A stretch of 64,000 bases of DNA from an uncultured Christensenella sp. (GTDB lineage: Bacteria; Bacillota; Clostridia; Christensenellales; UBA1242): contig CATKZB010000003.1 in assembly GCA_949841595.1 (NCBI GenBank), positions 32,320 through 96,319 of the forward strand, in the 5' to 3' direction. The notes beneath the pieces are model-generated. The model did no database searches. It worked only from the letters and a program-made list of their open reading frames with translations, and was not told the DNA's origin. A program made the position numbers and the translations under genes. How positions within the stretch are numbered: the stretch's first letter is position 1; each line of letters begins with the position of its first letter. Of this stretch, positions 3,257-26,583 are shown piece after piece.

Positions 3257-3277
3257 GAAGGTTTTTGCCTTCTTTTT

Positions 3278-4687
3278 TTATTTTAAGTTGTCTGGAAGAT
3301 CATTTTCAAACAAAACCACATCACCCTTTTGGAGAATTTTCTTCAAAATCTCTTTTTGTTCTGATCGAGTGTTTGCATAATAGATTTCGCTTAAACCACC
3401 CTCTTTTGCTCCATCATTCAATGCCTTTTTGTTTGTTTGATTCATAATCACAAAAATGTCAGCAACTTTGGCAATCTCTTTGCCTATATCATAGTTCACT
3501 TTTTCCTGTTGCTTTCCAAGTTCAACAATGCCTGGCGAAACCACAATTTTTTTCCCTTCAAAACTTGCCAAAACTTCCAACGCTTGTTTGAAACCTTCAA
3601 AGTTGCTGTTGTAAGAATCATCGATAACATCAACAAATTGACCTTTTATAAGTTCCAATCGATGTGGCGTTGGTTGAATATGTTTGATTGCATTTTGAAT
3701 GTTATACAAACTTTCCCCCAACAAATATGCCATTGCCGTGGCCACCACAATGTTGTCTATGTTTGCCTTTCCCAAAAGTTTTGTTTGGCACAAAAATTGT
3801 TTCCCGTCCAACATCATAACGAACTCTGTGCCATCAGAATTTGAAACAGCATCTTTTGCATAAGCAAAACTCCCTTCTTCACAAACAAGATATTTCTTTT
3901 GAGGATATTTTTTATAAAGTTTTTTTGTAGACTTGCTCTTTCCATTGAAGATGACAACATCTTTTGTGTTTTCACATAATTCATATTTTGTCTTTTCAAT
4001 GTTTTCAATGCTGCCAAAAGTTTCCAAATGGCAATTGCCTATTGGAGTCATAATTCCAAAATCAACGCCCACATATTTTGCCAGGAAACCAATGTCGCCC
4101 ACATGTCTTGCTCCCATTTCAACAATAAAAAATTCGTCAGTTTCTTTCAAATCTTCCAAAATGGTTTTGCAGATTCCCATCGGAGTATTATAGCTTTTTG
4201 GTGTTGCACACACATCAAACTCTTCAGCCAAAATCTGGTACAGTATATTTTTTGTGGAAGTTTTTCCAAAACTCCCTGTTATTGCAATCTTCTTGCAATT
4301 CAATTTTTGAAGCTTTCTTTTTGCTTTTTTTAAATAATGCAATTTAATCAATTCTTCCATAGGTTTTGCAACAGCAAATAAAATGACAATCACAATTGGG
4401 CTAAACAAAATCAAAACAATGCTTAAGCCAAAATTTATCCAAAAATAAGGAATAAGCCCAAAAAACAGAAGAAAATAAGCAAAATTCAATAAAAAATTGA
4501 TTAAAATCAATCTTTTTACTCTTTTTGTGAAAATTAATTTGTTTTTATCTCCAAAAGAAAAATCAAATCTCACAATATTTTTTATGTAACGTTTTATTTT
4601 GTAATTTTCCAACTGAAAATTTTTTATGAAGATAAATCCAATCAAAGTTAGCCCAACCGAAATTAAAAATGCATACAAAACAAACAT
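3278..4687 (-). CDS. MurF-like Mur ligase with an N-terminal multi-pass membrane region replacing the usual domain 1
   Basis: MurF-type motifs are present: ITGSFGKTSTK (P-loop), FFIVEMGARHVGDI, MTPIGNCHLETFGS, DDSYNSNFEGF. The first ~115 aa are strongly hydrophobic (MFVLYAFLISVGLTLIGFIFI; LILINFLLNFAYFLLFFGLIPYFWINFGLSIVLILFSPIVIVILFAVA). Confidence 0.75.
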   Translation of the reverse strand: MFVLYAFLISVGLTLIGFIFIKNFQLENYKIKRYIKNIVRFDFSFGDKNKLIFTKRVKRLILINFLLNFAYFLLFFGLIPYFWINFGLSIVLILFSPIVIVILFAVAKPMEELIKLHYLKKAKRKLQKLNCKKIAITGSFGKTSTKNILYQILAEEFDVCATPKSYNTPMGICKTILEDLKETDEFFIVEMGARHVGDIGFLAKYVGVDFGIMTPIGNCHLETFGSIENIEKTKYELCENTKDVVIFNGKSKSTKKLYKKYPQKKYLVCEEGSFAYAKDAVSNSDGTEFVMMLDGKQFLCQTKLLGKANIDNIVVATAMAYLLGESLYNIQNAIKHIQPTPHRLELIKGQFVDVIDDSYNSNFEGFKQALEVLASFEGKKIVVSPGIVELGKQQEKVNYDIGKEIAKVADIFVIMNQTNKKALNDGAKEGGLSEIYYANTRSEQKEILKKILQKGDVVLFENDLPDNLK

Positions 4688-4696
4688 AATTTCCTC

Positions 4697-5422
4697 CTAG
4701 TTTTCTTTAATAAATTTTTCTAGCTGTGACAGAAATTCCAATCGTCTTTCAACAAAGCAAAAATGTCCAGCGCCTTCAAGCAAAACAAGTTTTGAATTTT
4801 TTATTTTCCTTTTAAACTTTTTAGCCATATATATTGGTGTTGTTTTATCTTCTTTTCCGAAAATAACCAAAGTTTTTGCACGTATGAATGGCAAGAAATC
4901 ATCAAGATGTGTGTTTACAATGCTGTTGAAAACCTTTTTCATATTTTTGTCTAGGGCAAGATAATCACAGCTCCCATATTTTGAAACATCCAATCCCAAT
5001 TTCTTTTTCAATTTGTAAGTGTAGACCTTTAAGTAATACCACAAGCTTCTTCTGGGTTTCAGCCCTGCACTATCTACTAAAACCACCTTCTGAACTTCTT
5101 CTTTGCAAAGCACTGCCATAATAATAGATATCCTTCCACCAAAAGAGTGACCTATCAAATTGAGTTTTTTAAGTTTTAAATGCTGACATAACGATATCAC
5201 CATATTTGCATATGTAAAAACATTCCAATCTTTTGGAAACTTGTCACTTTCGCCAAAAGGTGGAAAATCAATAAAAAGTGAATTTTGCTTTTTTAAATGG
5301 TCTTGGCAAAACAAAAGGCTTTTGTGATTTGCTCCCCAACCATGCAAATAGACATTTGTGACATCACTTTTTTTATCTATAAATTTATAAAATATTTTGG
5401 TGTTTCTATAAACATATATCAT
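4697..5422 (-). CDS. Alpha/beta-fold hydrolase
   Basis: 241 aa with an HGWG oxyanion-type motif, the GHSFGG nucleophile elbow and a C-terminal GAGHF motif. Confidence 0.75.
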   Translation of the reverse strand: MIYVYRNTKIFYKFIDKKSDVTNVYLHGWGANHKSLLFCQDHLKKQNSLFIDFPPFGESDKFPKDWNVFTYANMVISLCQHLKLKKLNLIGHSFGGRISIIMAVLCKEEVQKVVLVDSAGLKPRRSLWYYLKVYTYKLKKKLGLDVSKYGSCDYLALDKNMKKVFNSIVNTHLDDFLPFIRAKTLVIFGKEDKTTPIYMAKKFKRKIKNSKLVLLEGAGHFCFVERRLEFLSQLEKFIKEN

Positions 5423-5431
5423 AAAATCAGT

Positions 5432-6757
5432 TTATGAAATAAAATTATTTTTGTGTAAAATAACCGGCAAATCTCCAGCTCCCAAAAACAACAAAACTGC
5501 ACAACTTTTTTTTAATTGCATTAAAAATTCAAAAAGGTCTTCATAATTATCAAAATATTTTGCATTTTCATTACAATTTTTCAATATTTCAGTAAATCTT
5601 TTTGCACTCATTCCCTCATCTTCTCTTTCTCGAGCAGAATAAGTTTTGAAAAAAACAGGTATTTCAACATCCTTAAAAACATCAATAAACTCAGGTAAGA
5701 GTGTTTTAGTTCGGCTGAAAGTATGTGGCTGAAAGATTGTAATTAATGTTTTGTTTTTGTAAAGTTTTTTTGCTGTCTTTATGGCTTTGGAAATTTCTGT
5801 TGGATGATGAGCATAATCACAAATAACATTGTCAAAATATTGACAATCAACTTTTTCAAAACGTGTTGACACTCCTTTAAATCTCTCCAACCCCATTTTT
5901 ATATAACAATCAGGTATTTGCAAAAGTTTTGCAACCTGATATGCATAAATGCAGTTCTGTGTATTAATTTCTTCACATATGTGCAAATGTAAATCCATAA
6001 TTTTTTTGTTGCCTTCGCAAAGCGAAAAAAGCAAGTAACCATTTTTGTCATGACGTAAATTTTTCGCATGCAAATTATTTTGTCCTTCCACCACAATTTC
6101 AGATTGTTTTCTGAACTGCTCAAAAGAACTTAGCTGCCTTTCAAAAGTTTTAAAATAATCCATATGCTCTTTCTCAACATTTGTGACAACGCTGATATAT
6201 GGAAATAGATTTAAAAAGTTGTCATGATATTCGCAAGCTTCTGTAACAAAAAATTCATTCCCACCATTTTCGTAATTTTGACCATCTTCAATTCTAAAGC
6301 CACCCAAATGCAGTGTAGGATTTTTGCCGGCACACTTCAATATTTCATAAATCATTGCTGTTGTGGTGGTTTTTCCGTGTGAACCTGCAACTGCAATCAC
6401 TTTTTCAAAATCATTTGCAAGCATCCCCAAAAGTTGCCCACGAGTGAGCATCTTTTTTCTATGTTTCTTTGCACATAAATAATGTGGATTGTCTTCTTTG
6501 ATTGCAGACGATAAGACAATGACATCAGCGTTTTTTATTTTTTCTTCGTTGAGCACTAAATCCACCATAATTGAGTGTTTTTCCAAAATCTGTGTTGCTC
6601 TAGAAAAAGTAATATCGCTTCCACCAACTTCAAAGCCTTTTTCTTTAAGCATTATTGCAATAACGGACATAGAAACTCCACCTATGCCCATAAGATAATA
6701 TTTTGCTTTTGTGTCGAATTTTGATGTTTTGTTTTTCTTTAGATTAATCTGTTCCAT
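5432..6757 (-). CDS. murC: UDP-N-acetylmuramate--L-alanine ligase
   Basis: 441 aa with the N-terminal Rossmann motif YLMGIGGVSMSVIAIMLKEKGFEVGGSD and the Mur ligase P-loop AGSHGKTTTTAMI. Confidence 0.9.
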   Translation of the reverse strand: MEQINLKKNKTSKFDTKAKYYLMGIGGVSMSVIAIMLKEKGFEVGGSDITFSRATQILEKHSIMVDLVLNEEKIKNADVIVLSSAIKEDNPHYLCAKKHRKKMLTRGQLLGMLANDFEKVIAVAGSHGKTTTTAMIYEILKCAGKNPTLHLGGFRIEDGQNYENGGNEFFVTEACEYHDNFLNLFPYISVVTNVEKEHMDYFKTFERQLSSFEQFRKQSEIVVEGQNNLHAKNLRHDKNGYLLFSLCEGNKKIMDLHLHICEEINTQNCIYAYQVAKLLQIPDCYIKMGLERFKGVSTRFEKVDCQYFDNVICDYAHHPTEISKAIKTAKKLYKNKTLITIFQPHTFSRTKTLLPEFIDVFKDVEIPVFFKTYSAREREDEGMSAKRFTEILKNCNENAKYFDNYEDLFEFLMQLKKSCAVLLFLGAGDLPVILHKNNFIS

Positions 6758-19144: not shown

Positions 19145-19573
19145 TGCTTTCTCTTTATCAATTTGCTCGGTCATTATTTTCATTATCTTGTCAATTTTTT
19201 TGCATTCTTTCTTATCTAAATTTTGTTTTAGGTCATTGACAATAACATAATCTTCTTTATTTTCGTAAAAATCAAAAAACTTTTGTGTTGGAACTAAAAT
19301 ATATTCCCTTCCATCTTTTTTGGATTTCTCTTTTGTGATAAATCCTTTCTTAATCAATTGCTTAACTTTGTAAGTTGCATTTGGTGAAGAAATGTCCAAA
19401 AAGTTTGCAAATTGTGAAACTGTTGGATTCCCCATAAGATAAATACATTCAAGACAAAAATATTCCGAAGATGACAACGATTCTTCTTTGTCACTGATTC
19501 TGTGGAACATGTTCTTGTAAATTATCAACTTTATCTTTTTATAAAACTTATTTACTGATTTTTTTAATTTCAT
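19142..19573 (-). CDS. MarR-family transcriptional regulator
   Basis: 143 aa with a winged-helix segment (TVSQFANFLDISSPNATYKVKQLIKKGFITKEKSKKDGREYIL). Confidence 0.75.
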   Translation of the reverse strand: MKLKKSVNKFYKKIKLIIYKNMFHRISDKEESLSSSEYFCLECIYLMGNPTVSQFANFLDISSPNATYKVKQLIKKGFITKEKSKKDGREYILVPTQKFFDFYENKEDYVIVNDLKQNLDKKECKKIDKIMKIMTEQIDKEKA

Positions 19574-19674
19574 ATTTCCTTCTCAAAATTGAATGTATTT
19601 TAACATTATCCAGAAAGAAAAACAAGTGTTTTATTAAAAGTTTTTAACTATTTTACAAAATTGTTAAAATTTCT

Positions 19675-20115
19675 TTAACTTAAAATTTTATTTCTCAATG
19701 TTTTATATTCTTCATCTGTTATAACGCCATTTTCATGCATTCTTTCCAAATCTTCCAATTCCTGCTTAATTTTGTCTATATTATTGTTTGAAGGTTTGGA
19801 ATCATCTGTGTTATCTTTAATTGTTTCGGCAGATTTCATTTCATTGATTGTGTTGTAAGTCAAAACTGCAAACACAATAGCAATTGCTCCTGCAGGCAAT
19901 GTGCAAGCTCCAAAAATCACTCCCCAAACCAACAAAGTTGTGTTGTTTTCTTTAAGTTGTTTTTGGCTGTAATTTTCTGCCTTTCCCATTGCATTAGATC
20001 CAATGATCATAGGCACACCAAAAATTATACCTATCAACGTGATACATAACAAAATACCCACAATAAGCATAAAAATTCTCATTAAATTGAAATAAACTTT
20101 AACATCAACTTTCAT
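19675..20115 (-). CDS. Membrane protein with C-terminal SHOCT domain
   Basis: 146 aa with hydrophobic helices and a C-terminal LERMHENGVITDEEYKTLRNKIL (SHOCT pattern). Confidence 0.7.
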   Translation of the reverse strand: MKVDVKVYFNLMRIFMLIVGILLCITLIGIIFGVPMIIGSNAMGKAENYSQKQLKENNTTLLVWGVIFGACTLPAGAIAIVFAVLTYNTINEMKSAETIKDNTDDSKPSNNNIDKIKQELEDLERMHENGVITDEEYKTLRNKILS

Positions 20116-20200
20116 ATTTTCTCCTTACAAAATAAGTTTACAACAAATTTCGCAAAATGTCAATGTGAAAAAACTAATTTATTTTTATTATTAAATTTTA

Positions 20201-20229
20201 TTGAAAATTTTTCTTTTTTATGTTAATAT
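20201..20229 (+). promoter_or_regulatory. Sigma-A-type promoter of tRNA-Glu
   Basis: TTGAAA (20201-20206), a 17-nt spacer, then TAATAT (20224-20229), about 20 nt upstream of the tRNA 5' end. Confidence 0.5.
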
Positions 20230-20248
20230 ATAAGTGCAAAGATATCAT

Positions 20249-20323
20249 GGTCCTATGGTCAAGTGGTTAAGACGCCACCCTCTCACGGTGGAATCAAGGG
20301 TTCGATTCCCTTTAGGACTACCA
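20249..20323 (+). tRNA. tRNA-Glu, anticodon CUC, with encoded CCA
   Basis: Hand-folded cloverleaf: acceptor GGTCCTA/TAGGACT, anticodon stem CCACC/GGTGG, loop C-T-CTC-A-C, T-arm AAGGG-TTCGATT-CCCTT, and 3' ACCA. Confidence 0.9.
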
Positions 20324-20398
20324 ACCGAGCATAAAGCGAACTATTATTTCAAAGGTGGCTTTGCAATAACAATTTGGCTTTAAGAAAAACAGCATCTA

Positions 20399-21034
20399 TC
20401 AAGGTGCTGTTTTTTGTTGTTTATATAATTGTTTTAACAAATCATAATTGTTTATTTCAAAACTTGTTTTACCTATCTTTAAAACATCTTTTACGATTTC
20501 AGCCTTTTTAACAAGCCAATCTGGAGCATTATTGATAATTCCGCTTCCAATTTCTCTATAAGCTAAATATGCCCCAATCAAGTATGGAATATCTTCTTTA
20601 TAAATCTTTTGGTGCATTTTAAACTTTACGATATAAATATTGCTCTCTCTAGTTATTTTAGTGCTGTGATATTCAGCAATAATTTCATCTATTAAAATTT
20701 TTCGATTATCTATCTTCTTATCTTTGAAAAAGTCCTCAATTTGTTTATAGAAAATTAAATGTGTTATTTCGTGATAAATATTGTTTCTATTTATAATCGT
20801 TGCTATATAGTTTTCATTTTCAATAAAAGAGAATTTGCCCCCTAATTTCATATTATCAGCACTTATTGCTTCTTTAATCTCGTATGCAAACTTTGGTGCA
20901 TCAATATTTTTTACATCTTCTATATTAGACAAAGCATAAAAATGAAATTCTGGTAAATAGCCAAAATATGATACAATTTTTTCTTTTTCTACTTCTGTGA
21001 GGGCTGTTTCGTTTATCATATTACCATTATACAA
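20399..21034 (-). CDS. HEXXH metallopeptidase-like protein (possible ImmA/IrrE-type anti-repressor protease)
   Basis: 211 aa with an HEITH motif in NIYHEITHLIFY. It lies directly downstream of, and co-oriented with, an XRE regulator, which is the ImmR/ImmA-like arrangement. Confidence 0.55.
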   Translation of the reverse strand: MYNGNMINETALTEVEKEKIVSYFGYLPEFHFYALSNIEDVKNIDAPKFAYEIKEAISADNMKLGGKFSFIENENYIATIINRNNIYHEITHLIFYKQIEDFFKDKKIDNRKILIDEIIAEYHSTKITRESNIYIVKFKMHQKIYKEDIPYLIGAYLAYREIGSGIINNAPDWLVKKAEIVKDVLKIGKTSFEINNYDLLKQLYKQQKTAP

Positions 21035-21064
21035 ATAAAAACGCCTATAATCAAATATAAGCGT

Positions 21065-21382
21065 TTATTTTTTATATAAATTCATTATTGCTTCTTTTTG
21101 GTAAGGAGATAAAGTTTTTAAGAACTCTAATGTTTGTTTATCTTGTTTATATTGATTTATGTCATAAGAGAAAAATTCTTCTGGCGTAGATCCACACACT
21201 TCTATTATATCAAGTAAAACTGATAAAGATGGTTCAAAAGTTGTTTTACTGCTTTCCAGCAAATGTATATAACTTGCATTTTTACCTATTGCTAAACTCA
21301 ATGCCCTTGCTGAGAGATTTGCTCTGGTTCTTATTATGCCTATTCTAGCAACAATTTCTTTTATGTCCATAACCGCCTCCAT
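21065..21382 (-). CDS. XRE-family HTH regulator (island copy 1)
   Basis: 105 aa with an HTH_3-like segment (RTRANLSARALSLAIGKNASYIHLLESSK). Confidence 0.7.
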   Translation of the reverse strand: MEAVMDIKEIVARIGIIRTRANLSARALSLAIGKNASYIHLLESSKTTFEPSLSVLLDIIEVCGSTPEEFFSYDINQYKQDKQTLEFLKTLSPYQKEAIMNLYKK

Positions 21383-21524
21383 TTTTATACATATATTTTA
21401 ATGGTTATAAGACTTTTTATGATTTAACTATACATAACAAAATGAATTATTATTCAATAATATATTTAATAATACTAGATATTTTTATAAAAATATGTTA
21501 TAGTATATAAATATCGAGGTAATT

Positions 21525-22121
21525 GTGAAACAAGATGCTGAATTTGGTTTTAGATTTTTTGGATTATGCATACTGCCAATAGTAATTGCAATGATTTTTG
21601 CTGGCTACATATCTCAAATAAATTCTATTATAATAATGGGATTTGTAATGCTTGCATTTTGCTTGGGCTCCATACTGATTTCGATACTTATAAAAATAAA
21701 TAAAACCAAAAAAGAAAGAGAACTGCAAGAAGCCATAATTAAATCAAATATATCACAAATTGATAATCTAACACCATATATGTTTGAAGAATGGGTCGCA
21801 AGACTTTTAAGAAATATGGGTTTCAAAGCCACAATAACAAGAAAGTCGGGAGATTATGGCATAGATGTTATTGCTGAAAAAAATCAAACTCAAACAAAAA
21901 TAGGAATACAAGTCAAGAAATACAATAAGTCAGTCGGCATAAAGGCGGTGCAAGAGGTTATTTCTGGAATGAGTTATTATGATTGTAATGAAGGCTGGGT
22001 TGTTACATCGGCGAATGACTTTACCCCAGCAGCAAAAAACCTTGCAAATAAAAGAAATATAAAACTTATAACTAGAAATGATTTGGCTATGATATTAAAT
22101 AAACTATCTAATCAAGTTTAA
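21525..22121 (+). CDS. Membrane-anchored Mrr-type (PD-(D/E)xK) restriction-endonuclease-domain protein
   Basis: 198 aa. Two N-terminal hydrophobic helices are followed by FEEWVARLLRNMGFKATITRKSGDYGIDVIAEK...IGIQVKKY, the Mrr_cat catalytic pattern. Confidence 0.75.
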   Translation: MKQDAEFGFRFFGLCILPIVIAMIFAGYISQINSIIIMGFVMLAFCLGSILISILIKINKTKKERELQEAIIKSNISQIDNLTPYMFEEWVARLLRNMGFKATITRKSGDYGIDVIAEKNQTQTKIGIQVKKYNKSVGIKAVQEVISGMSYYDCNEGWVVTSANDFTPAAKNLANKRNIKLITRNDLAMILNKLSNQV

Positions 22122-22132
22122 AAGGATTATAT

Positions 22133-22615
22133 ATGAAAAACAAATTAAGAATTATTATTTTATTAATGATCATACTACTGCCTATGACGTTTTTGTGTGC
22201 TTGTTCAAACGATAATAATGACACAGTTGATGAATTTAAAATTGAAATTGTTGGCATAACACCACCACATAGTAGCGAAATCGATTTTAAAACCACTCAT
22301 AGCATATTATTTAGGTTTTTATATACTGAAGAAATGTTTAACTATGAAATAAGGAATTCTTCTGCTGGCTTATTATTTTATCTTTCTATAAATGGTGGCG
22401 AAGAGAAACCCCTACAAAATGGAAATGTAAATCTAATGTATGGTATACCTTACGGTAATGGAAGCCGAATTTTGGCTTTCAAGCCAAATGAGTATGTTTA
22501 TTTTTATATGGCTCTTGAACCAAACCATTATGAAATAAACTTTAAATTATATTATGCTGACTATTCGCCTTATAAATTGTTAGAAACCTGCAAGGTTGTC
22601 TTTGATATAGAATAA
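22133..22615 (+). CDS. Lipoprotein of unknown function
   Basis: 160 aa with a signal peptide and lipobox (LPMTFLCAC-S). It starts 12 nt after the nuclease gene. Confidence 0.65.
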   Translation: MKNKLRIIILLMIILLPMTFLCACSNDNNDTVDEFKIEIVGITPPHSSEIDFKTTHSILFRFLYTEEMFNYEIRNSSAGLLFYLSINGGEEKPLQNGNVNLMYGIPYGNGSRILAFKPNEYVYFYMALEPNHYEINFKLYYADYSPYKLLETCKVVFDIE

Positions 22616-22696
22616 CTTGATGGGCGACCCATTATTTCAAAAACAACTTTCACTTTTATCACATCCAAAAGCATTATATATTTTATATATAAAAAT

Positions 22697-22725
22697 CGAG
22701 CAAAACCTTTAATGAGTAATGCTCG
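22697..22725. terminator. Hairpin with A-run/T-run flanks, a possible bidirectional terminator
   Basis: CGAGCA (22697-22702) pairs with TGCTCG (22720-22725). AAAAA lies upstream and TTTATTTTT downstream. The loop is long (17 nt), so confidence is moderate. Confidence 0.45.
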
Positions 22726-22892
22726 TTTATTTTTGCCGACAAACCCCATACACCCCTAAAGATTATAAGAGTATTTAGAGAGTAAATTTTCAAACGACCT
22801 ATATTTTTAAACTCAACTGCTTTGATTTGGAGTTTAGAGAGTTTTCTCCCTATAGGTGCTAAAAGTTGCTGGAGTTTCAAACTATTGCACAT

Positions 22893-23260
22893 TGTTCAAT
22901 GCGTAGATTATGTTATGGCTCTTCGTTTTACTTAACTACTTCCGCCACCGATAGCGTGTGAATTGTTTCGGTCTTTTAAAAGAAATTTCGTTCTCAACTG
23001 CTTCGACTTATCGTTCTATTGAGTTCGCCCTCAGCCAACTAGTGCTATGATGCACGGACTATCTATACCCCGTCCATAATTGACTGCTCCCGACTTTCGT
23101 CTATAGACTTCCAACCCAGATTGTTATTTATACACCTCGCTGTGTGGTGCTCTTAGTGGTGCGTTTTGTGGGCACACCACCGTCAATTCACAACGGTTAC
23201 TAACCGCCTTAGACGACATCGTCATTCAGCCGAACCGCTACCTGCACTTTAAATCTAAAT
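22893..23260 (-). ncRNA. Candidate large structured non-coding RNA of unknown class (strand tentative)
   Basis: No ORF of 60 aa or more on either strand. The core 22921-23250 is about 46% G+C by hand count, against about a third in the flanks. There are multiple hairpins and palindromes, including GAC-GAAA-GTC on the minus strand. The block is co-oriented with the upstream small ORFs and the downstream hairpin plus T-run. Confidence 0.45.
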
Positions 23261-23269
23261 TATTGCAAT

Positions 23270-23473
23270 TTATTTGTCCCTTTCTTCCTTTAGCTTTTCT
23301 TCTATGACTTCTAGTTCTTTTCTAGCATCTTCATCGGTATCTTGTATTGATCTTAGATAATCAATGTAGAGTGCTTTATTTTGCTCGATAAATGGGGTTA
23401 TAAGGTCTTTTATAAGGCAAGCAAAGGAATTTACTTGTTTATGGCTTATTTTCACTTGATTGTGTGTAAACAA
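23270..23473 (-). CDS. Hypothetical small acidic protein (67 aa; start uncertain, TTG)
   Basis: ORF from the track. It has a coiled-coil-like acidic C-terminus (DTDEDARKELEVIEEKLKEERDK), no clear RBS, and overlaps the 3' end of the upstream 52-aa ORF. Confidence 0.35.
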   Translation of the reverse strand: MFTHNQVKISHKQVNSFACLIKDLITPFIEQNKALYIDYLRSIQDTDEDARKELEVIEEKLKEERDK

Positions 23474-23597
23474 CCATATCAGCCTGCTTTGACCAGAACT
23501 TTTTATTGTATTCTTTTATCTTGTCTTTGTTGTTCTTTCGCCAGTTCTTGTAATAATCTCGGCGAGCCTGAATAAGTTGTTCGTTTTTAGTAGCCAT
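23439..23597 (-). CDS. Hypothetical small basic protein (52 aa)
   Basis: My own translation gives MATKNEQLIQARRDYYKNWRKNNKDKIKEYNKKFWSKQADMVVYTQSSENKP. The ATG at 23595-23597 follows an AAGGGG RBS. The RRDYY..WR..N..K..EYN..FW pattern resembles small proteins I recall seeing in Firmicute mobile elements. It falls below the ORF-track length cutoff. Confidence 0.45.
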   Translation of the reverse strand: MATKNEQLIQARRDYYKNWRKNNKDKIKEYNKKFWSKQADMVVYTQSSENKP

Positions 23598-23628
23598 AAA
23601 ATTTACCCCTTTTATCTTTTCTTTTTGC

Positions 23629-23664
23629 TTGACAAAATTGTTACATTGAATTATAATAGTAACA
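23629..23664 (+). promoter_or_regulatory. Consensus sigma-A promoter of the XRE-recombinase operon, with an operator-like inverted repeat around the -10
   Basis: TTGACA (23629-23634), a 17-nt spacer, then TATAAT (23652-23657). The inverted repeat TGTTAC (23639-23644) / GTAACA (23659-23664) brackets the -10. The palindrome ATTATAAT also offers a minus-strand TATAAT. Confidence 0.6.
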
Positions 23665-23756
23665 GATTTTGCTTATATAAATATTATATAGGTAAAATAA
23701 AATTTGGTATAAAAAACAAAAGAAAAGTAACAAAAAAGATACAAGGGGTTTGAATT

Positions 23757-24260
23757 ATGAAAGAATGTAACACTATTGGAGAGAGAATTAGAGCATTAAG
23801 AGAAGAGAAAGGACTTACTCAACAGCAACTTGCAAAAGCACTCTACACTTCAAGAGTAAATGTCAATTATTGGGAGAATGACGAGAGAAATATAAAATCA
23901 GACATTATAATTGCTTTGGCTGAGTTTTTTGATGTATCGTGTGATTATCTTCTTACTGGCATCAGTTCAAAAAATATAGGCATATATAGAGAATTTGGCT
24001 TAGATGATGATGCTGTCAACAATATTAAGACTGTAGAAAAACATTTTAAAGGTTTAACCAATAAATTTATAAAAAACAATAACTTTATTTTCTTAATGAA
24101 TAGCATAAGAGAACATATAAAATATCAGTGTAAAAATCACGATATTAAAGAAAAAAAGGAAATTCAAAATGCTCTTATATTGGAAGCGGGCTACAAACAA
24201 CTTTGTCATAATGAACTTGATGATATTTTAGGAACTATGGTTTGGGAGGCTAAAAAATGA
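23757..24260 (+). CDS. XRE-family HTH regulator (island copy 2, 167 aa)
   Basis: The N-terminal HTH_3 segment is IGERIRALREEKGLTQQQLAKALYTSRVNVNYWENDER. The stop overlaps the recombinase start (ATGA). Confidence 0.8.
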   Translation: MKECNTIGERIRALREEKGLTQQQLAKALYTSRVNVNYWENDERNIKSDIIIALAEFFDVSCDYLLTGISSKNIGIYREFGLDDDAVNNIKTVEKHFKGLTNKFIKNNNFIFLMNSIREHIKYQCKNHDIKEKKEIQNALILEAGYKQLCHNELDDILGTMVWEAKK

Positions 24261-25798
24261 ATGTTGTTATTTATGCTAGGTTTTCATCTCATCATCAAAC
24301 AGAACAAAGCATTGAGGGACAATTAAAAGAATGTTATGACTATGCTCGAAGAAATAACTACACTGTCGTTGGCGAATACATTGATAGAGCCATTTCTGGA
24401 ACTACTGACAATCGACCAGAATTTAAAAGAATGATTGTTGACAGCAAAAGTCATTTGTTTCAAGGAGTATTAGTTTACCAACTTGATAGATTTGCTCGTA
24501 ACCGTTATGACAGTGCTACATACAAAGCCAAATTGAAGAAAAACGGAGTTAAAGTAATTTCGGCTCGAGAAAATATAAGCGATGATGCGAGTGGCGTTTT
24601 AATGGAAGCAGTGCTTGAGGGAATGGCTGAATATTACAGCAAAGAACTAGGACAAAAAGTAATGCGAGGTATGAAAGTGTCTGCATCCAAATGCTTGAGC
24701 ACTGGCAGTTATATTCCACTAGGTTATAAGATCGTTGACCGCAAATATGTGATAGATGAACACGGAGCGGAAGCGGTCAAATACATATTTGAAAAATATG
24801 CTACTGGAACACCTATTGTTGAAATCAATCAATATCTAAATGATAACCACTACAAAACATCTCGTGGCGGAGATTTTAATAAAAACTCTTTAAGAAGAAT
24901 ACTGAGCAATAAAAAATATATAGGCATCTATAAATATAGCGATGTAATCGTGAAAGATGGCATTCCTAGAATAATCTCCGATGAATTGTTTAATGAGGTT
25001 CAAAAACGCCTTGTAATCAATAAAAAAGCCCCAGCAAGAACAAGGGCTAAAGAAGATTACATATTAACAACAAAATTGTTTTGCGGTCATTGCAGAAGCC
25101 TTATGACTGGTGCTAGTGGAACTTCTCATACTGGAGAAAAACATAGTTACTATATATGCAATAAAACAAAGGTTAAACAATGTGGTAAGAAGCGAGTAAA
25201 AAAGAATTACATTGAAGATTTAGTTATACAACATTGTCGCTCAATTCTTACTGATGACAACATAGAAATAATTGCCAAAGCGGTGGCGGAGGCTTGCCAG
25301 AATGACGCTCAAAACACTATAATAAAGCATCTTGAGAAGATGTTAAAAGAAAACGAAAAGGCTGTAGAAAACCTATTTAAAGCCCTTGAAAGCGGTGCTA
25401 TTGTAGAACAAATAACAAGTCGTATTCAAGAGAAAAACAAAGAGCATTTAGAGTTAGAAAAGCAAATGGCGGCGGAACGAAAGAAAGGCACTATTTTAAC
25501 CAAGCCACAAGTTAAGTTCTTTTTAAAGCAACTACAAAAAGGCAACGACAAAGACATCAAAGTTCGCAAGGCTATAATCTCAGTATTTGTAAATGCTATC
25601 TACCTTTACGATGATAAAGTAACATACATTTTAAATGCTGGTAACGAGCAAGTAACAATCACTGATGACTTACTCGATGAAATAGAAACATCAGCCCAAA
25701 GTTCTCTTATTAACTCACTTGGACTACCAAATATATTACATTCTTGTCACATCTCATTGAAAATGAGTTTTTTCATTATTAAAGTATTAAAAAACTAA
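24257..25798 (+). CDS. Large serine recombinase (integrase)
   Basis: 513 aa. The resolvase catalytic domain is MNVVIYARFSSHHQTEQSIEGQ...VLVYQLDRFARN. It is followed by a recombinase domain, a zinc-ribbon (CGHCRSLMTG...YYICNK...CGKK) and a coiled coil. Confidence 0.9.
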   Translation: MNVVIYARFSSHHQTEQSIEGQLKECYDYARRNNYTVVGEYIDRAISGTTDNRPEFKRMIVDSKSHLFQGVLVYQLDRFARNRYDSATYKAKLKKNGVKVISARENISDDASGVLMEAVLEGMAEYYSKELGQKVMRGMKVSASKCLSTGSYIPLGYKIVDRKYVIDEHGAEAVKYIFEKYATGTPIVEINQYLNDNHYKTSRGGDFNKNSLRRILSNKKYIGIYKYSDVIVKDGIPRIISDELFNEVQKRLVINKKAPARTRAKEDYILTTKLFCGHCRSLMTGASGTSHTGEKHSYYICNKTKVKQCGKKRVKKNYIEDLVIQHCRSILTDDNIEIIAKAVAEACQNDAQNTIIKHLEKMLKENEKAVENLFKALESGAIVEQITSRIQEKNKEHLELEKQMAAERKKGTILTKPQVKFFLKQLQKGNDKDIKVRKAIISVFVNAIYLYDDKVTYILNAGNEQVTITDDLLDEIETSAQSSLINSLGLPNILHSCHISLKMSFFIIKVLKN

Positions 25799-25908
25799 AT
25801 GGTTACATCAAAAATCTTCTAGGAGAAAAGAAAAACAAAATCCCTTATGATTACAAATCTTAAAACACCAAGGTAAATAAAAACACACTTTGAAAAAGTG
25901 TGTTTTTA

Positions 25909-26583
25909 TTATTTTTCCAATTCATAAAGACTCATCAGATAATCAATGTTTGATTGTTTATCTTTTGGAATTGCAATAAGTTGAATTGTGGTTGTATTAA
26001 TAACGGTTATTGTAACTTCATTGTCATTAAAAAGGTCATTATCCATATCCAAAAATTTAATTATGTTGTTTCTTTCATAAGTCCATCTTGATATTACTGG
26101 TAAATTTACTTCATCAGCTCCAATCAATGTCATTACAAATTGACCATTCTTTGCAAATTCCCAAGTTCCAAATGTTGCATGCCCTGGAATTTCTACATCA
26201 GGAGTTCCATCATTATAATGTAATAAATCTCTTTTACAAACAAATTTTCCCATAACAAAAGAATCAACTCTGTAAGACAAATTCAAAGACTTTGTTTCAT
26301 ATTTTATGGTCAAATGTTTTTCACCAATAGCTGTTGTGTCAAAGTTCTTAATCATGTCACTTGTTATAGAAATCTCTGTTGTATTGCCATTATTAAGTGT
26401 AACCACCAACTTTGAATTCATAGCATCAAATTCTTCATTTAACAAATAATCTGTTTTAACATTCTGTGTTAAATCAATTCTTTTGACTGCTACTGGATCT
26501 TCATTGTTATTGCAAGCTGTCAATCCCAAAACAGCACACAAAACCAACGCAGGCAAAACAAAAATTTTCGCAAATTTTTTCAT
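25909..26583 (-). CDS. Lipoprotein with an Ig-like repeat pattern
   Basis: 224 aa with the lipobox LGLTAC-N. The segment VKTDYLLNEEFD...KLVVTLNNGNTTEISITSDMIKNFDTTAIGEKHLTIKYETKSLNLSYRV resembles bacterial Ig-like surface domains. Confidence 0.7.
   Translation of the reverse strand: MKKFAKIFVLPALVLCAVLGLTACNNNEDPVAVKRIDLTQNVKTDYLLNEEFDAMNSKLVVTLNNGNTTEISITSDMIKNFDTTAIGEKHLTIKYETKSLNLSYRVDSFVMGKFVCKRDLLHYNDGTPDVEIPGHATFGTWEFAKNGQFVMTLIGADEVNLPVISRWTYERNNIIKFLDMDNDLFNDNEVTITVINTTTIQLIAIPKDKQSNIDYLMSLYELEK

Follow-up and report, generated by a model that had tools for sequence, protein, structure and literature searches.

Few classes, perhaps a dozen or so, are known among bacterial noncoding RNAs (ncRNAs) that exceed about 350 nucleotides (nt) and have complex conserved folds. 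Most of the large ones have turned out to be ribozymes, scaffolds of ribonucleoproteins (RNPs) or, recently, RNA-only cages, and ROOL (RF03087) and GOLLD (RF01998) are large ornate RNAs of prophages and Firmicutes (PMC12286853). We analyzed a 64,000-nt stretch of DNA from an uncultured Christensenella sp. (contig CATKZB010000003.1, positions 32,320 to 96,319; hereafter the window), in which a sequence-only reading had singled out the block at 22893-23260 as a candidate large structured RNA of no known class. It is quite probable that this block is the gene for an undescribed large structured ncRNA, encoded on the minus strand as a constant part of a tRNA-associated island and with a proposed role in the propagation of that island. 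Few new large structured RNAs come to light, and the present one, although rare, belongs to a small and tractable system.

Like ROOL and GOLLD, the RNA is several hundred nt long, has many helices, forms a G+C-rich island in A+T-rich DNA and is carried on an integrated mobile element. Unlike them, it lies ~2.4 kb from the tRNA rather than adjacent to it, is tied to a specific small open reading frame (ORF) and the early operon of a serine-recombinase mini-island, and is found in four lineages rather than in thousands of members. Covariance models also set it apart: no Rfam 15 family, ROOL and GOLLD included, matches at E ≤ 10 on either strand of 19500-26500 or at E ≤ 5 in the homologous loci L059, L070 and L082. 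Over the whole window no family matches the block at gathering scores, and the only RNA gene found is tRNA-Glu(CUC) at 20249-20323. The comparison with ROOL and GOLLD drawn in the sequence-only reading thus holds for size and mobile-element context and fails for membership, and the view that the RNA belongs to no known class agrees with the Rfam search of the four lineages, which gave no match to ROOL, GOLLD, OLE, raiA or HEARO. As judged by sequence and covariance model, the RNA is a new family outside ROOL, GOLLD and every other family in Rfam 15.

ColE1 RNA II is a structured RNA of ~550 nt with G-rich segments near its 3' end, which stands in for a replication initiator protein, and Rop, a two-helix hairpin protein of ~63 amino acids (aa), is encoded near it. 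In our locus, too, an RNA lies at the position of the replication genes of relatives, its tail carries conserved G-runs and it is accompanied by a predicted two-helix protein, ORF67. This is an analogy only: there is no sequence or model similarity to RNA II, the host is a Clostridia-type Firmicute and not an enterobacterium, and the predicted fold of ORF67 does not significantly match that of any solved structure. The CI RNA of P4 and the C4 RNAs of P1 and P7 are ncRNAs from the early operon beside the lysogeny switch of an integrated element; they are ~70-80 nt long, are processed from the operon leader and pair with repeated target sites. The RNA described here would likewise belong to an early operon beside the switch of an integrated element, but it is at least five times larger, its place is 3' in the operon, and no conserved complementary target was found for it. 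The seekRNA of IS1111 is a structured ncRNA encoded beside the recombinase gene of a mobile element. The same is true of the bridge RNA of IS110 (PMC11208160). Our RNA shares this neighborhood; however, the recombinase here is of the large serine type with DNA-binding domains of its own, not a DEDD (RuvC-like) transposase, which places the RNA outside the IS110/IS1111 class, and none of the other recombinase relatives examined has the RNA at its locus.

A conserved, strand-specific fold without coding capacity

The block is 100% identical to a contig of a metagenome-assembled genome (MAG), CALWEA010000005.1, from an uncultured Clostridia bacterium. With the window sequence as lineage A, three further lineages were found via neighboring proteins in Logan/ENA assemblies: lineage B (L059-L064 and L067), which is 92-94% identical to A over the module; lineage C (L070), with a recombinase 66% identical to that of A; and lineage D (L082), a 661-nt contig reached through a homolog of ORF67. 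At the nucleotide level (ranges are given where two measurements differed), the RNA core is 97% identical between A and B, 87% between A and C, and 88% between A and D. The corresponding identities are 90-93%, 59% and 73% for the ORF67 gene and, for A-B and A-C, respectively, 92-94% and 58% for the ORF52 gene, 70% and 55% for the XRE gene, 90% and 66% for the recombinase gene, and 84-90% and 56% for the 3' tail of the RNA. The 5'-terminal ~80 nt of the RNA do not differ among A, B and C. The RNA core is the best-conserved part of the module, and the constraint on it is stronger than that on any protein gene of the element.

The family is rare, being found only in these four lineages, and its carriers are very likely low-GC gut-type Clostridia. 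BLASTN of 22620-23270 found nothing in phage collections and, in plasmid collections, nothing beyond a 37-nt AT-rich match in Acinetobacter that was dismissed as chance, and nhmmer and covariance-model searches of ~850 kb of related-recombinase loci recovered no further copies. Exact-seed scans of IMG/VR (seven DNA seeds), GTDB species genomes (three DNA seeds) and JGI metagenomes (one seed) revealed no further copy beyond the source MAG; the loci L068, L069, L075-L081 and L083-L091 share the seeds only, by chance, in unrelated and mostly high-GC or coding DNA. The literature gave no match for the sequence strings or for serine-recombinase-linked structured RNAs, with 200 of the 408 files of the PMC8040213 supplement covered.

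RNAalifold applied to the minus strand of the four lineages gave 96 pairs. One weak helix was swapped for a GAAA-capped hairpin supported by variation, and the final model comprises 93 pairs in 17 helices over a structured core at 22885-23259 (minus strand), which was evaluated by pair counts, a strand test, the structure conservation index and a covariance model, R1. The long-range helices P2 (7 bp, 23242-23236/22956-22950) and P6 (9 bp, 23192-23184/22965-22957) together close a multi-branched domain of ~280 nt. In the MAFFT alignment, 98.1% of the cells form standard pairs, compared with 29-41% when the partners are slid by 1-3 columns; for both alignments together, the values are 98-99% and 29-43%. 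Eight pairs, in six helices, are changed on both sides in the MAFFT alignment, whereas the slid controls give 0-1 and none of 500 shuffles reaches 8. Fitting to R1 (which covers 23244-22948) mends a misplaced indel in L070; in the fitted alignment, 99.0% of the cells are paired and six double-change pairs are found in the 296-nt main domain. Variable columns account for 15% of the paired positions and 34% of the unpaired ones.

The compensatory changes are carried by P4, P7, P8, P9, P15 and P16, so that, on four sequences only, compensatory substitution of the kind expected for a structured ncRNA is seen. In P4 (23223-23220/23215-23212), an A-U pair in A, B and C is replaced by G-C in D; in P15 (22947-22944/22919-22916), a U-A pair in A, B and C is replaced by C-G in D; and in P7 (23181-23173/23163-23155), two pairs read G-C and G-C in A and B, G-C and G·U in C, and A-U and A-U in D. 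P9 (23101-23099/23094-23092) is a 3-bp stem with a GAAA tetraloop; the loop is invariant in all lineages, while the stem is GAC/GUC in A and B, GC/GC in C and AGC/GCU in D, with both sides changed in two of the three pairs. P4, P7, P15 and P8 (23150-23146/23136-23132) are already formed when the window sequence is folded by itself to minimum energy; these helices were therefore tested independently by the variants found later.

The structure elements and repeats listed in the sequence-only reading are all present in the window, and the comparative data bear on them differently. The GAAA-capped hairpin GACGAAAGTC (23092-23101, read on the minus strand) had been proposed from the window alone and is borne out, as P9, by the changes in C and D. 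The palindrome GTCTATAGAC (23099-23108) exists in the window; however, it is broken in C and D, where the overlapping GAAA hairpin covaries instead. The two GTGGTGC copies (23144-23150 and 23156-23162) had been thought to compete for one CACCAC (23175-23180), but each has a helix of its own in the model, P7 or P8. The GGAC/GTCC element lies at 23056-23075, and the 10-nt repeats are CTCAACTGCT (22812-22821 and 22993-23002) and TTTAGAGAGT (22774-22783 and 22833-22842). A 17-nt motif, AGCAGUUGAG, occurs twice in the RNA, as AAGUCGAAGCAGUUGAG at 22993-23009 in the core (P13/P14) and as AAAUCAAAGCAGUUGAG at 22812-22828 in a patch of the tail, and both copies show the same A-to-G change in lineage C (GGAGCAG and AGAGCAG), which hints at a shared partner or an alternative pairing. 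We also looked by eye for the classical 11-nt GAAA receptor and rejected it: UAUGG and CUAAG both exist, but in different helices of the model.

The fold belongs to the minus strand. Among the 371 paired cells, 38 (10%) are G·U; read on the plus strand, these become A·C mismatches, and the paired fraction falls from 98.1% to 87.9%. The consensus energy is -94.8 kcal/mol on the minus strand and -71.6 kcal/mol on the plus strand, and the structure conservation index is 0.88 and 0.76, respectively. Pairing, energy and structure conservation are all better on the minus strand; the RNA is therefore co-oriented with the small ORFs, as had been supposed.

The block also lacks coding capacity. In 200-nt windows, the G+C content is 0.435-0.475 across 22900-23299, compared with 0.23-0.34 (~29%) in the flanks, and it is 0.47 in the main domain (297 nt) of the RNA; 22893-23269 is free of ORFs of 60 aa or more, so the description of the block as GC-rich and ORF-free stands. 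Because stop codons of all three kinds fill all six frames of 22641-23269, at 7-21 per frame, a hidden or stop-recoded gene was rejected. An alternative is that the block is a decayed gene fragment, or encodes a 33-aa protein at 23225-23124, and that its structure is incidental. This 33-codon ORF is indeed intact in A and C; however, it is interrupted by a stop at codon 20 in B and by a frameshift in D, and is thus not a gene, and no Shine-Dalgarno sequence was found upstream of it. No reading frame is conserved in the four lineages. Neither would decay leave the block above its neighboring genes in conservation, with every frame filled with stops, or produce compensatory changes of pairs. We regard this alternative as barely credible, and it is the only one that is largely excluded. 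The block thus shows a conserved, strand-specific, multi-helix fold that lacks coding capacity and is maintained by selection. A large structured RNA is what the sequence-only reading had proposed, and the outcomes that it had named beforehand as fatal did not occur: no homolog has an intact ORF, some pairs covary and the RNA matches no known family.

The proposed transcription unit and ORF67

In all four lineages, the conserved RNA sequence begins 2-25 nt past the stop codon of ORF67, and no sigma-70-like site is present on the same strand within 160 nt upstream of the RNA in any of them. ORF67 (23270-23473, minus strand) encodes a protein of 55-67 aa with a predicted two-helix hairpin (predicted local distance difference test score, pLDDT, 87.6); it occurs only in the four RNA lineages, always immediately upstream of the RNA and never without it. 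The first gene of this minus-strand operon is ORF52 (23439-23597; PHROG 14214), whose homologs open the equivalent operon in relatives with replication genes (50% identity in L073/L074 and 31% in L092). The divergent promoter region (23598-23756, both strands) lies between ORF52 and the XRE operon. The promoter of the XRE-recombinase operon is a perfect TTGACA-17-TATAAT on the plus strand (23629-23657), and the predicted promoter of ORF52-ORF67-RNA is a weaker TTTATA-17-TATTAT on the minus strand (23681-23653). Domain scans identified an XRE-family helix-turn-helix (HTH) repressor-like protein at 23757-24260 (plus strand) and, next to it, a large serine recombinase of 513 aa at 24257-25798 (plus strand; Resolvase, Recombinase and Zn_ribbon_recom domains). 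The two small minus-strand ORFs and the divergent operon recognized earlier from the letters are both present. A complementarity between RNA positions 22910-22920 and the start of ORF52 (23592-23602) was treated as chance, since the ORF52 start of lineage C lacks the match (by eye).

The 3' tail is poorly conserved except for three patches: 22850-22812, the G-runs at 22758-22744, and an A-rich stretch before 22727-22690. The first patch, GGGAGAAAACUCUCUAAACUCCAAAUCAAAGCAGUUGAG, contains a small hairpin and the second copy of the 17-nt motif and is nearly invariant in A-D, and the two G-runs, UAGGGGUGUAUGGGG, are conserved in A, B and C. The probable 3' end lies at 22690-22727 (minus strand), where a hairpin, CGAGCA...UGCUCG, is followed by AUUUUUAU. 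In A and B, the hairpin (22697-22725) has a stem of 6-9 bp and a loop of 17 nt before the U-run; in lineage C, a non-homologous hairpin and a U/A-rich run occupy the same relative position. These features suggest a single transcript, ORF52-ORF67-RNA, ending near 22697. The RNA very likely measures ~450 nt, with a core of ~375 nt (23259-22885) and conserved sequence to ~22812. As it has no apparent promoter of its own, the RNA would be made as the 3' part of a transcript from the promoter that faces the repressor gene, and, because of this origin, it would be produced upon derepression of the island. With less confidence, we propose that the RNA acts as a folded molecule in its own right, probably together with ORF67.

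The same arrangement could be read as a cis-acting 3' untranslated region (UTR) that only stabilizes, processes or terminates the ORF52-ORF67 mRNA. The RNA has no promoter of its own and starts a few nt past the ORF67 stop, and ORF67 is always accompanied by it, all of which such a UTR would share. However, 375-450 nt, 17 helices and a covarying GNRA hairpin far exceed what a stabilizer or terminator needs, and between A and C the RNA is 87% identical whereas the ORFs that it would serve are 58-59% identical. A role confined to the mRNA is therefore unlikely.

Two observations concern the switch itself. The XRE proteins of A and B (L059:1441-1941) are only ~61% identical, compared with 94% for the recombinase, 87% for ORF52 and 97% for the RNA, which looks like diversification of a repressor of the immunity type. 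Moreover, L064 combines a lineage-B ORF67 with an N-terminal XRE part that is 92% identical to that of A, which suggests mosaicism.

Recombinase relatives and candidate roles of the RNA

The sequence-only reading had the RNA partnered with a serine-recombinase element. To the contrary, no nucleotide homolog of the RNA is present in 56 genome loci (L002-L057) with 26-56% identical recombinases or in six further loci with 61-64% identical ones, and none of the 29 distant loci with at least 2.5 kb upstream of the recombinase (30 including the source contig, L001) has an analogous GC-rich, ORF-free block there. The RNA does not generally accompany this recombinase family; what accompanies it steadily is ORF67. 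Stretches of 450-800 nt that lack ORFs and have ordinary G+C content do occur upstream of the recombinase operon in L019, L030-L032 and L035 (~5270-5732), in L022 (3960-4757) and in L023 (3796-4525); they show no similarity to the RNA.

The relatives with 61-64% identity share the switch layout, but their small ORFs are followed by primase-helicase genes or by DUF6291 (in L092, together with an IstB/DnaC-like gene). These recombinase relatives resemble phage satellites or prophage modules, and L071 and L072 show a weak match to a small terminase-like domain (GP3_package). In our lineages, A and B cease to be homologous at ~22641, beyond which A, B and C have unrelated genes; the conserved unit is thus the RNA, ORF67, ORF52, the XRE gene and the recombinase gene. 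The RNA is constantly present in this group of ~5-kb islands at tRNA 3' ends, which combine variable cargo with an XRE repressor and a large serine recombinase. Because the recombinase relatives carry their replication module at this position, a role in propagating the induced island would be the most likely one for the RNA, ahead of that of exchangeable cargo or of cis-regulation of a gene downstream. Its retention with the recombination and regulation core through changes of cargo points to the same role.

Two other functions compete with the proposed role in propagation at this point. First, the RNA could be defense or interference cargo directed against infecting phages, as a decoy, sensor or scaffold. 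The island encodes a predicted membrane-anchored Mrr-like nuclease with PADLOC matches, the relatives look like phage satellites or prophage modules, and ROOL and GOLLD, the closest analogues by size, are associated with prophages (PMC12286853). On the other hand, the protein cargo is exchanged between lineages whereas the RNA remains with the recombination/regulation module, which fits a core function better; we hold the defense function to be improbable. Second, the conserved structure could be formed by single-stranded DNA, as a single-strand origin or a site resembling an origin of transfer (oriT), for an excised island that is mobilized or replicated. Strand-specific pairing with G·T wobbles is possible in single-stranded DNA too, the block lies at the position of replication genes in the relatives, and GCGAAAGC, present in lineages C and D, is known as a very stable DNA mini-hairpin. 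However, the ten proteins scanned from the island and its flanks include no rolling-circle Rep, relaxase or other single-strand-processing domain, although a relaxase might be supplied in trans, and the element is placed like a transcription unit, after a same-strand ORF and before a hairpin and U-run. Known single-strand origins are ~150-300 nt long and unlike a 17-helix fold. The fold here is a multi-branched domain and not one long hairpin, and its 17 helices, its long-range closures of 9 and 7 bp over ~280 nt and its 10% G·U cells are typical of RNA. A DNA structure is accordingly very unlikely.

Returning to an RNA that serves island propagation, a more specific version is that the RNA and ORF67 stand in, as an RNA-based system, for the protein module that replicates or propagates phage-satellite-like islands. 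By analogy, this might take the form of a Rep-independent, RNA-primed origin that follows the logic of ColE1 and uses the conserved G-runs of the tail, or of an RNA or RNP assembly that lets the 5-kb island exploit a helper phage. We regard the substitution as doubtful. If it is true, a minimal integrative element would have a new mechanism of propagation, and a new class of large ornate RNAs would gain a function; should the RNA take over from the replication or hitch-hiking proteins of related islands, this would also be a new route to minimizing mobile elements.

Several points weigh against the reading of the block as an ncRNA gene with a role in propagation. Folding of the single sequence is not better than that of shuffled controls (z = -0.67 on the plus strand and -1.25 on the minus strand), and the case for an RNA therefore rests on comparative data. 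The distinct sequences number only four, and two of these are 97% identical; for this reason a formal covariation statistic (R-scape) is impossible; in addition, the consensus structure was derived from the same alignment that was used to score its pairs, and most helices, including all long-range ones, are invariant and carry no covariation information. The ends proposed for the RNA derive from conservation and from the hairpin and U-run. A strict terminator scan found nothing at the 3' end; of the hairpin and T-run (22697-22725) at which the block had been said to end, the hairpin and U-run are present in A and B, with a loop of 17 nt. The link between ORF67 and the RNA is a co-occurrence in four lineages only, and searches of ORF67 in Pfam, PHROGs, PADLOC and IMG/VR and, with AlphaFold2 and Foldseek, against the PDB gave no informative match. 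Finally, the argument from replacement of a replication module is positional only. The RNA is the most conserved part of a very small element whose other parts (integrase, repressor, tRNA attachment site) are well understood and which includes a dedicated small protein. This system is small enough for clean reconstitution and deletion, so the function of a large orphan RNA is directly testable in it.

Probable island junctions and cargo

The left junction of the island probably lies at the 3' end of the plus-strand tRNA-Glu(CUC) gene. Ten nt around this end (GGACTACCAA, 20315-20324) recur at 25721-25730, just past the point at which the homology of the recombinase gene to lineage C ends (near 25704). 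The recombinase ORF of the window runs through this second copy; as the homology ends near 25704 and the lineage B protein has 493 aa, the last ~25 codons are probably derived from the flank. In L070, the 3' end of a tRNA-Ile gene (AGTCCTACCA, 1643-1652) likewise recurs at 6714-6723, just past the recombinase gene. The junction repeats are individually weak (E of about 0.07 each); in both the window and L070, however, a repeat of the tRNA 3' end is found at the distal junction with the integrase adjacent, as in tRNA-integrated islands, and 20315-20324 and 25721-25730 are the probable junctions of an island of ~5.4 kb. Moreover, ~130 nt after the tRNA are 73% identical between the window (20324-20428) and L070 (1628-1760), though the tRNAs differ (Glu and Ile). 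Together with the junction repeats, this similarity indicates that the two loci are akin, both being ~5-kb islands at the 3' end of a tRNA gene with cargo that varies. The post-tRNA stretch contains a hairpin, AAAAACAGCA...TGCTGTTTTT; in Rfam it gives a sub-threshold match to the HPnc0260 antisense RNA in L070 (50.6 bits; gathering score, 59) and a very weak match to STnc50 in the window (E = 6.3).

The left part of the island encodes a 211-aa protein with an HExxH motif (IYHEITHLIF; 20399-21034, minus strand), which has no Pfam, PHROG or PADLOC match and is absent from the lineage C island. Beside it lies the gene of a small HTH protein (21065-21382, minus strand), whose 3' end matches the 3' end of a 101-aa gene of L070, and the layout of the two genes resembles that of ImmA/IrrE protease-repressor pairs. 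A lipoprotein gene (22133-22615, plus strand) belongs to the variable cargo. The predicted membrane-anchored nuclease (21525-22121, plus strand) has a C-terminal Mrr_cat domain (Pfam, 6e-32), and its PADLOC matches are to the Mrr-like domain of ZorD, PDC-S02 and type IV restriction enzymes; it is possibly defense cargo of the island. Whereas no equivalent array was seen in the window, L070 has three direct repeats ~47 nt apart (3270-3420; core TTTATAAATCGAGGTGC/AAAAATCGAGGTGC) between a cargo gene and the end of the RNA tail, and these could be iterons or operator-like sites.

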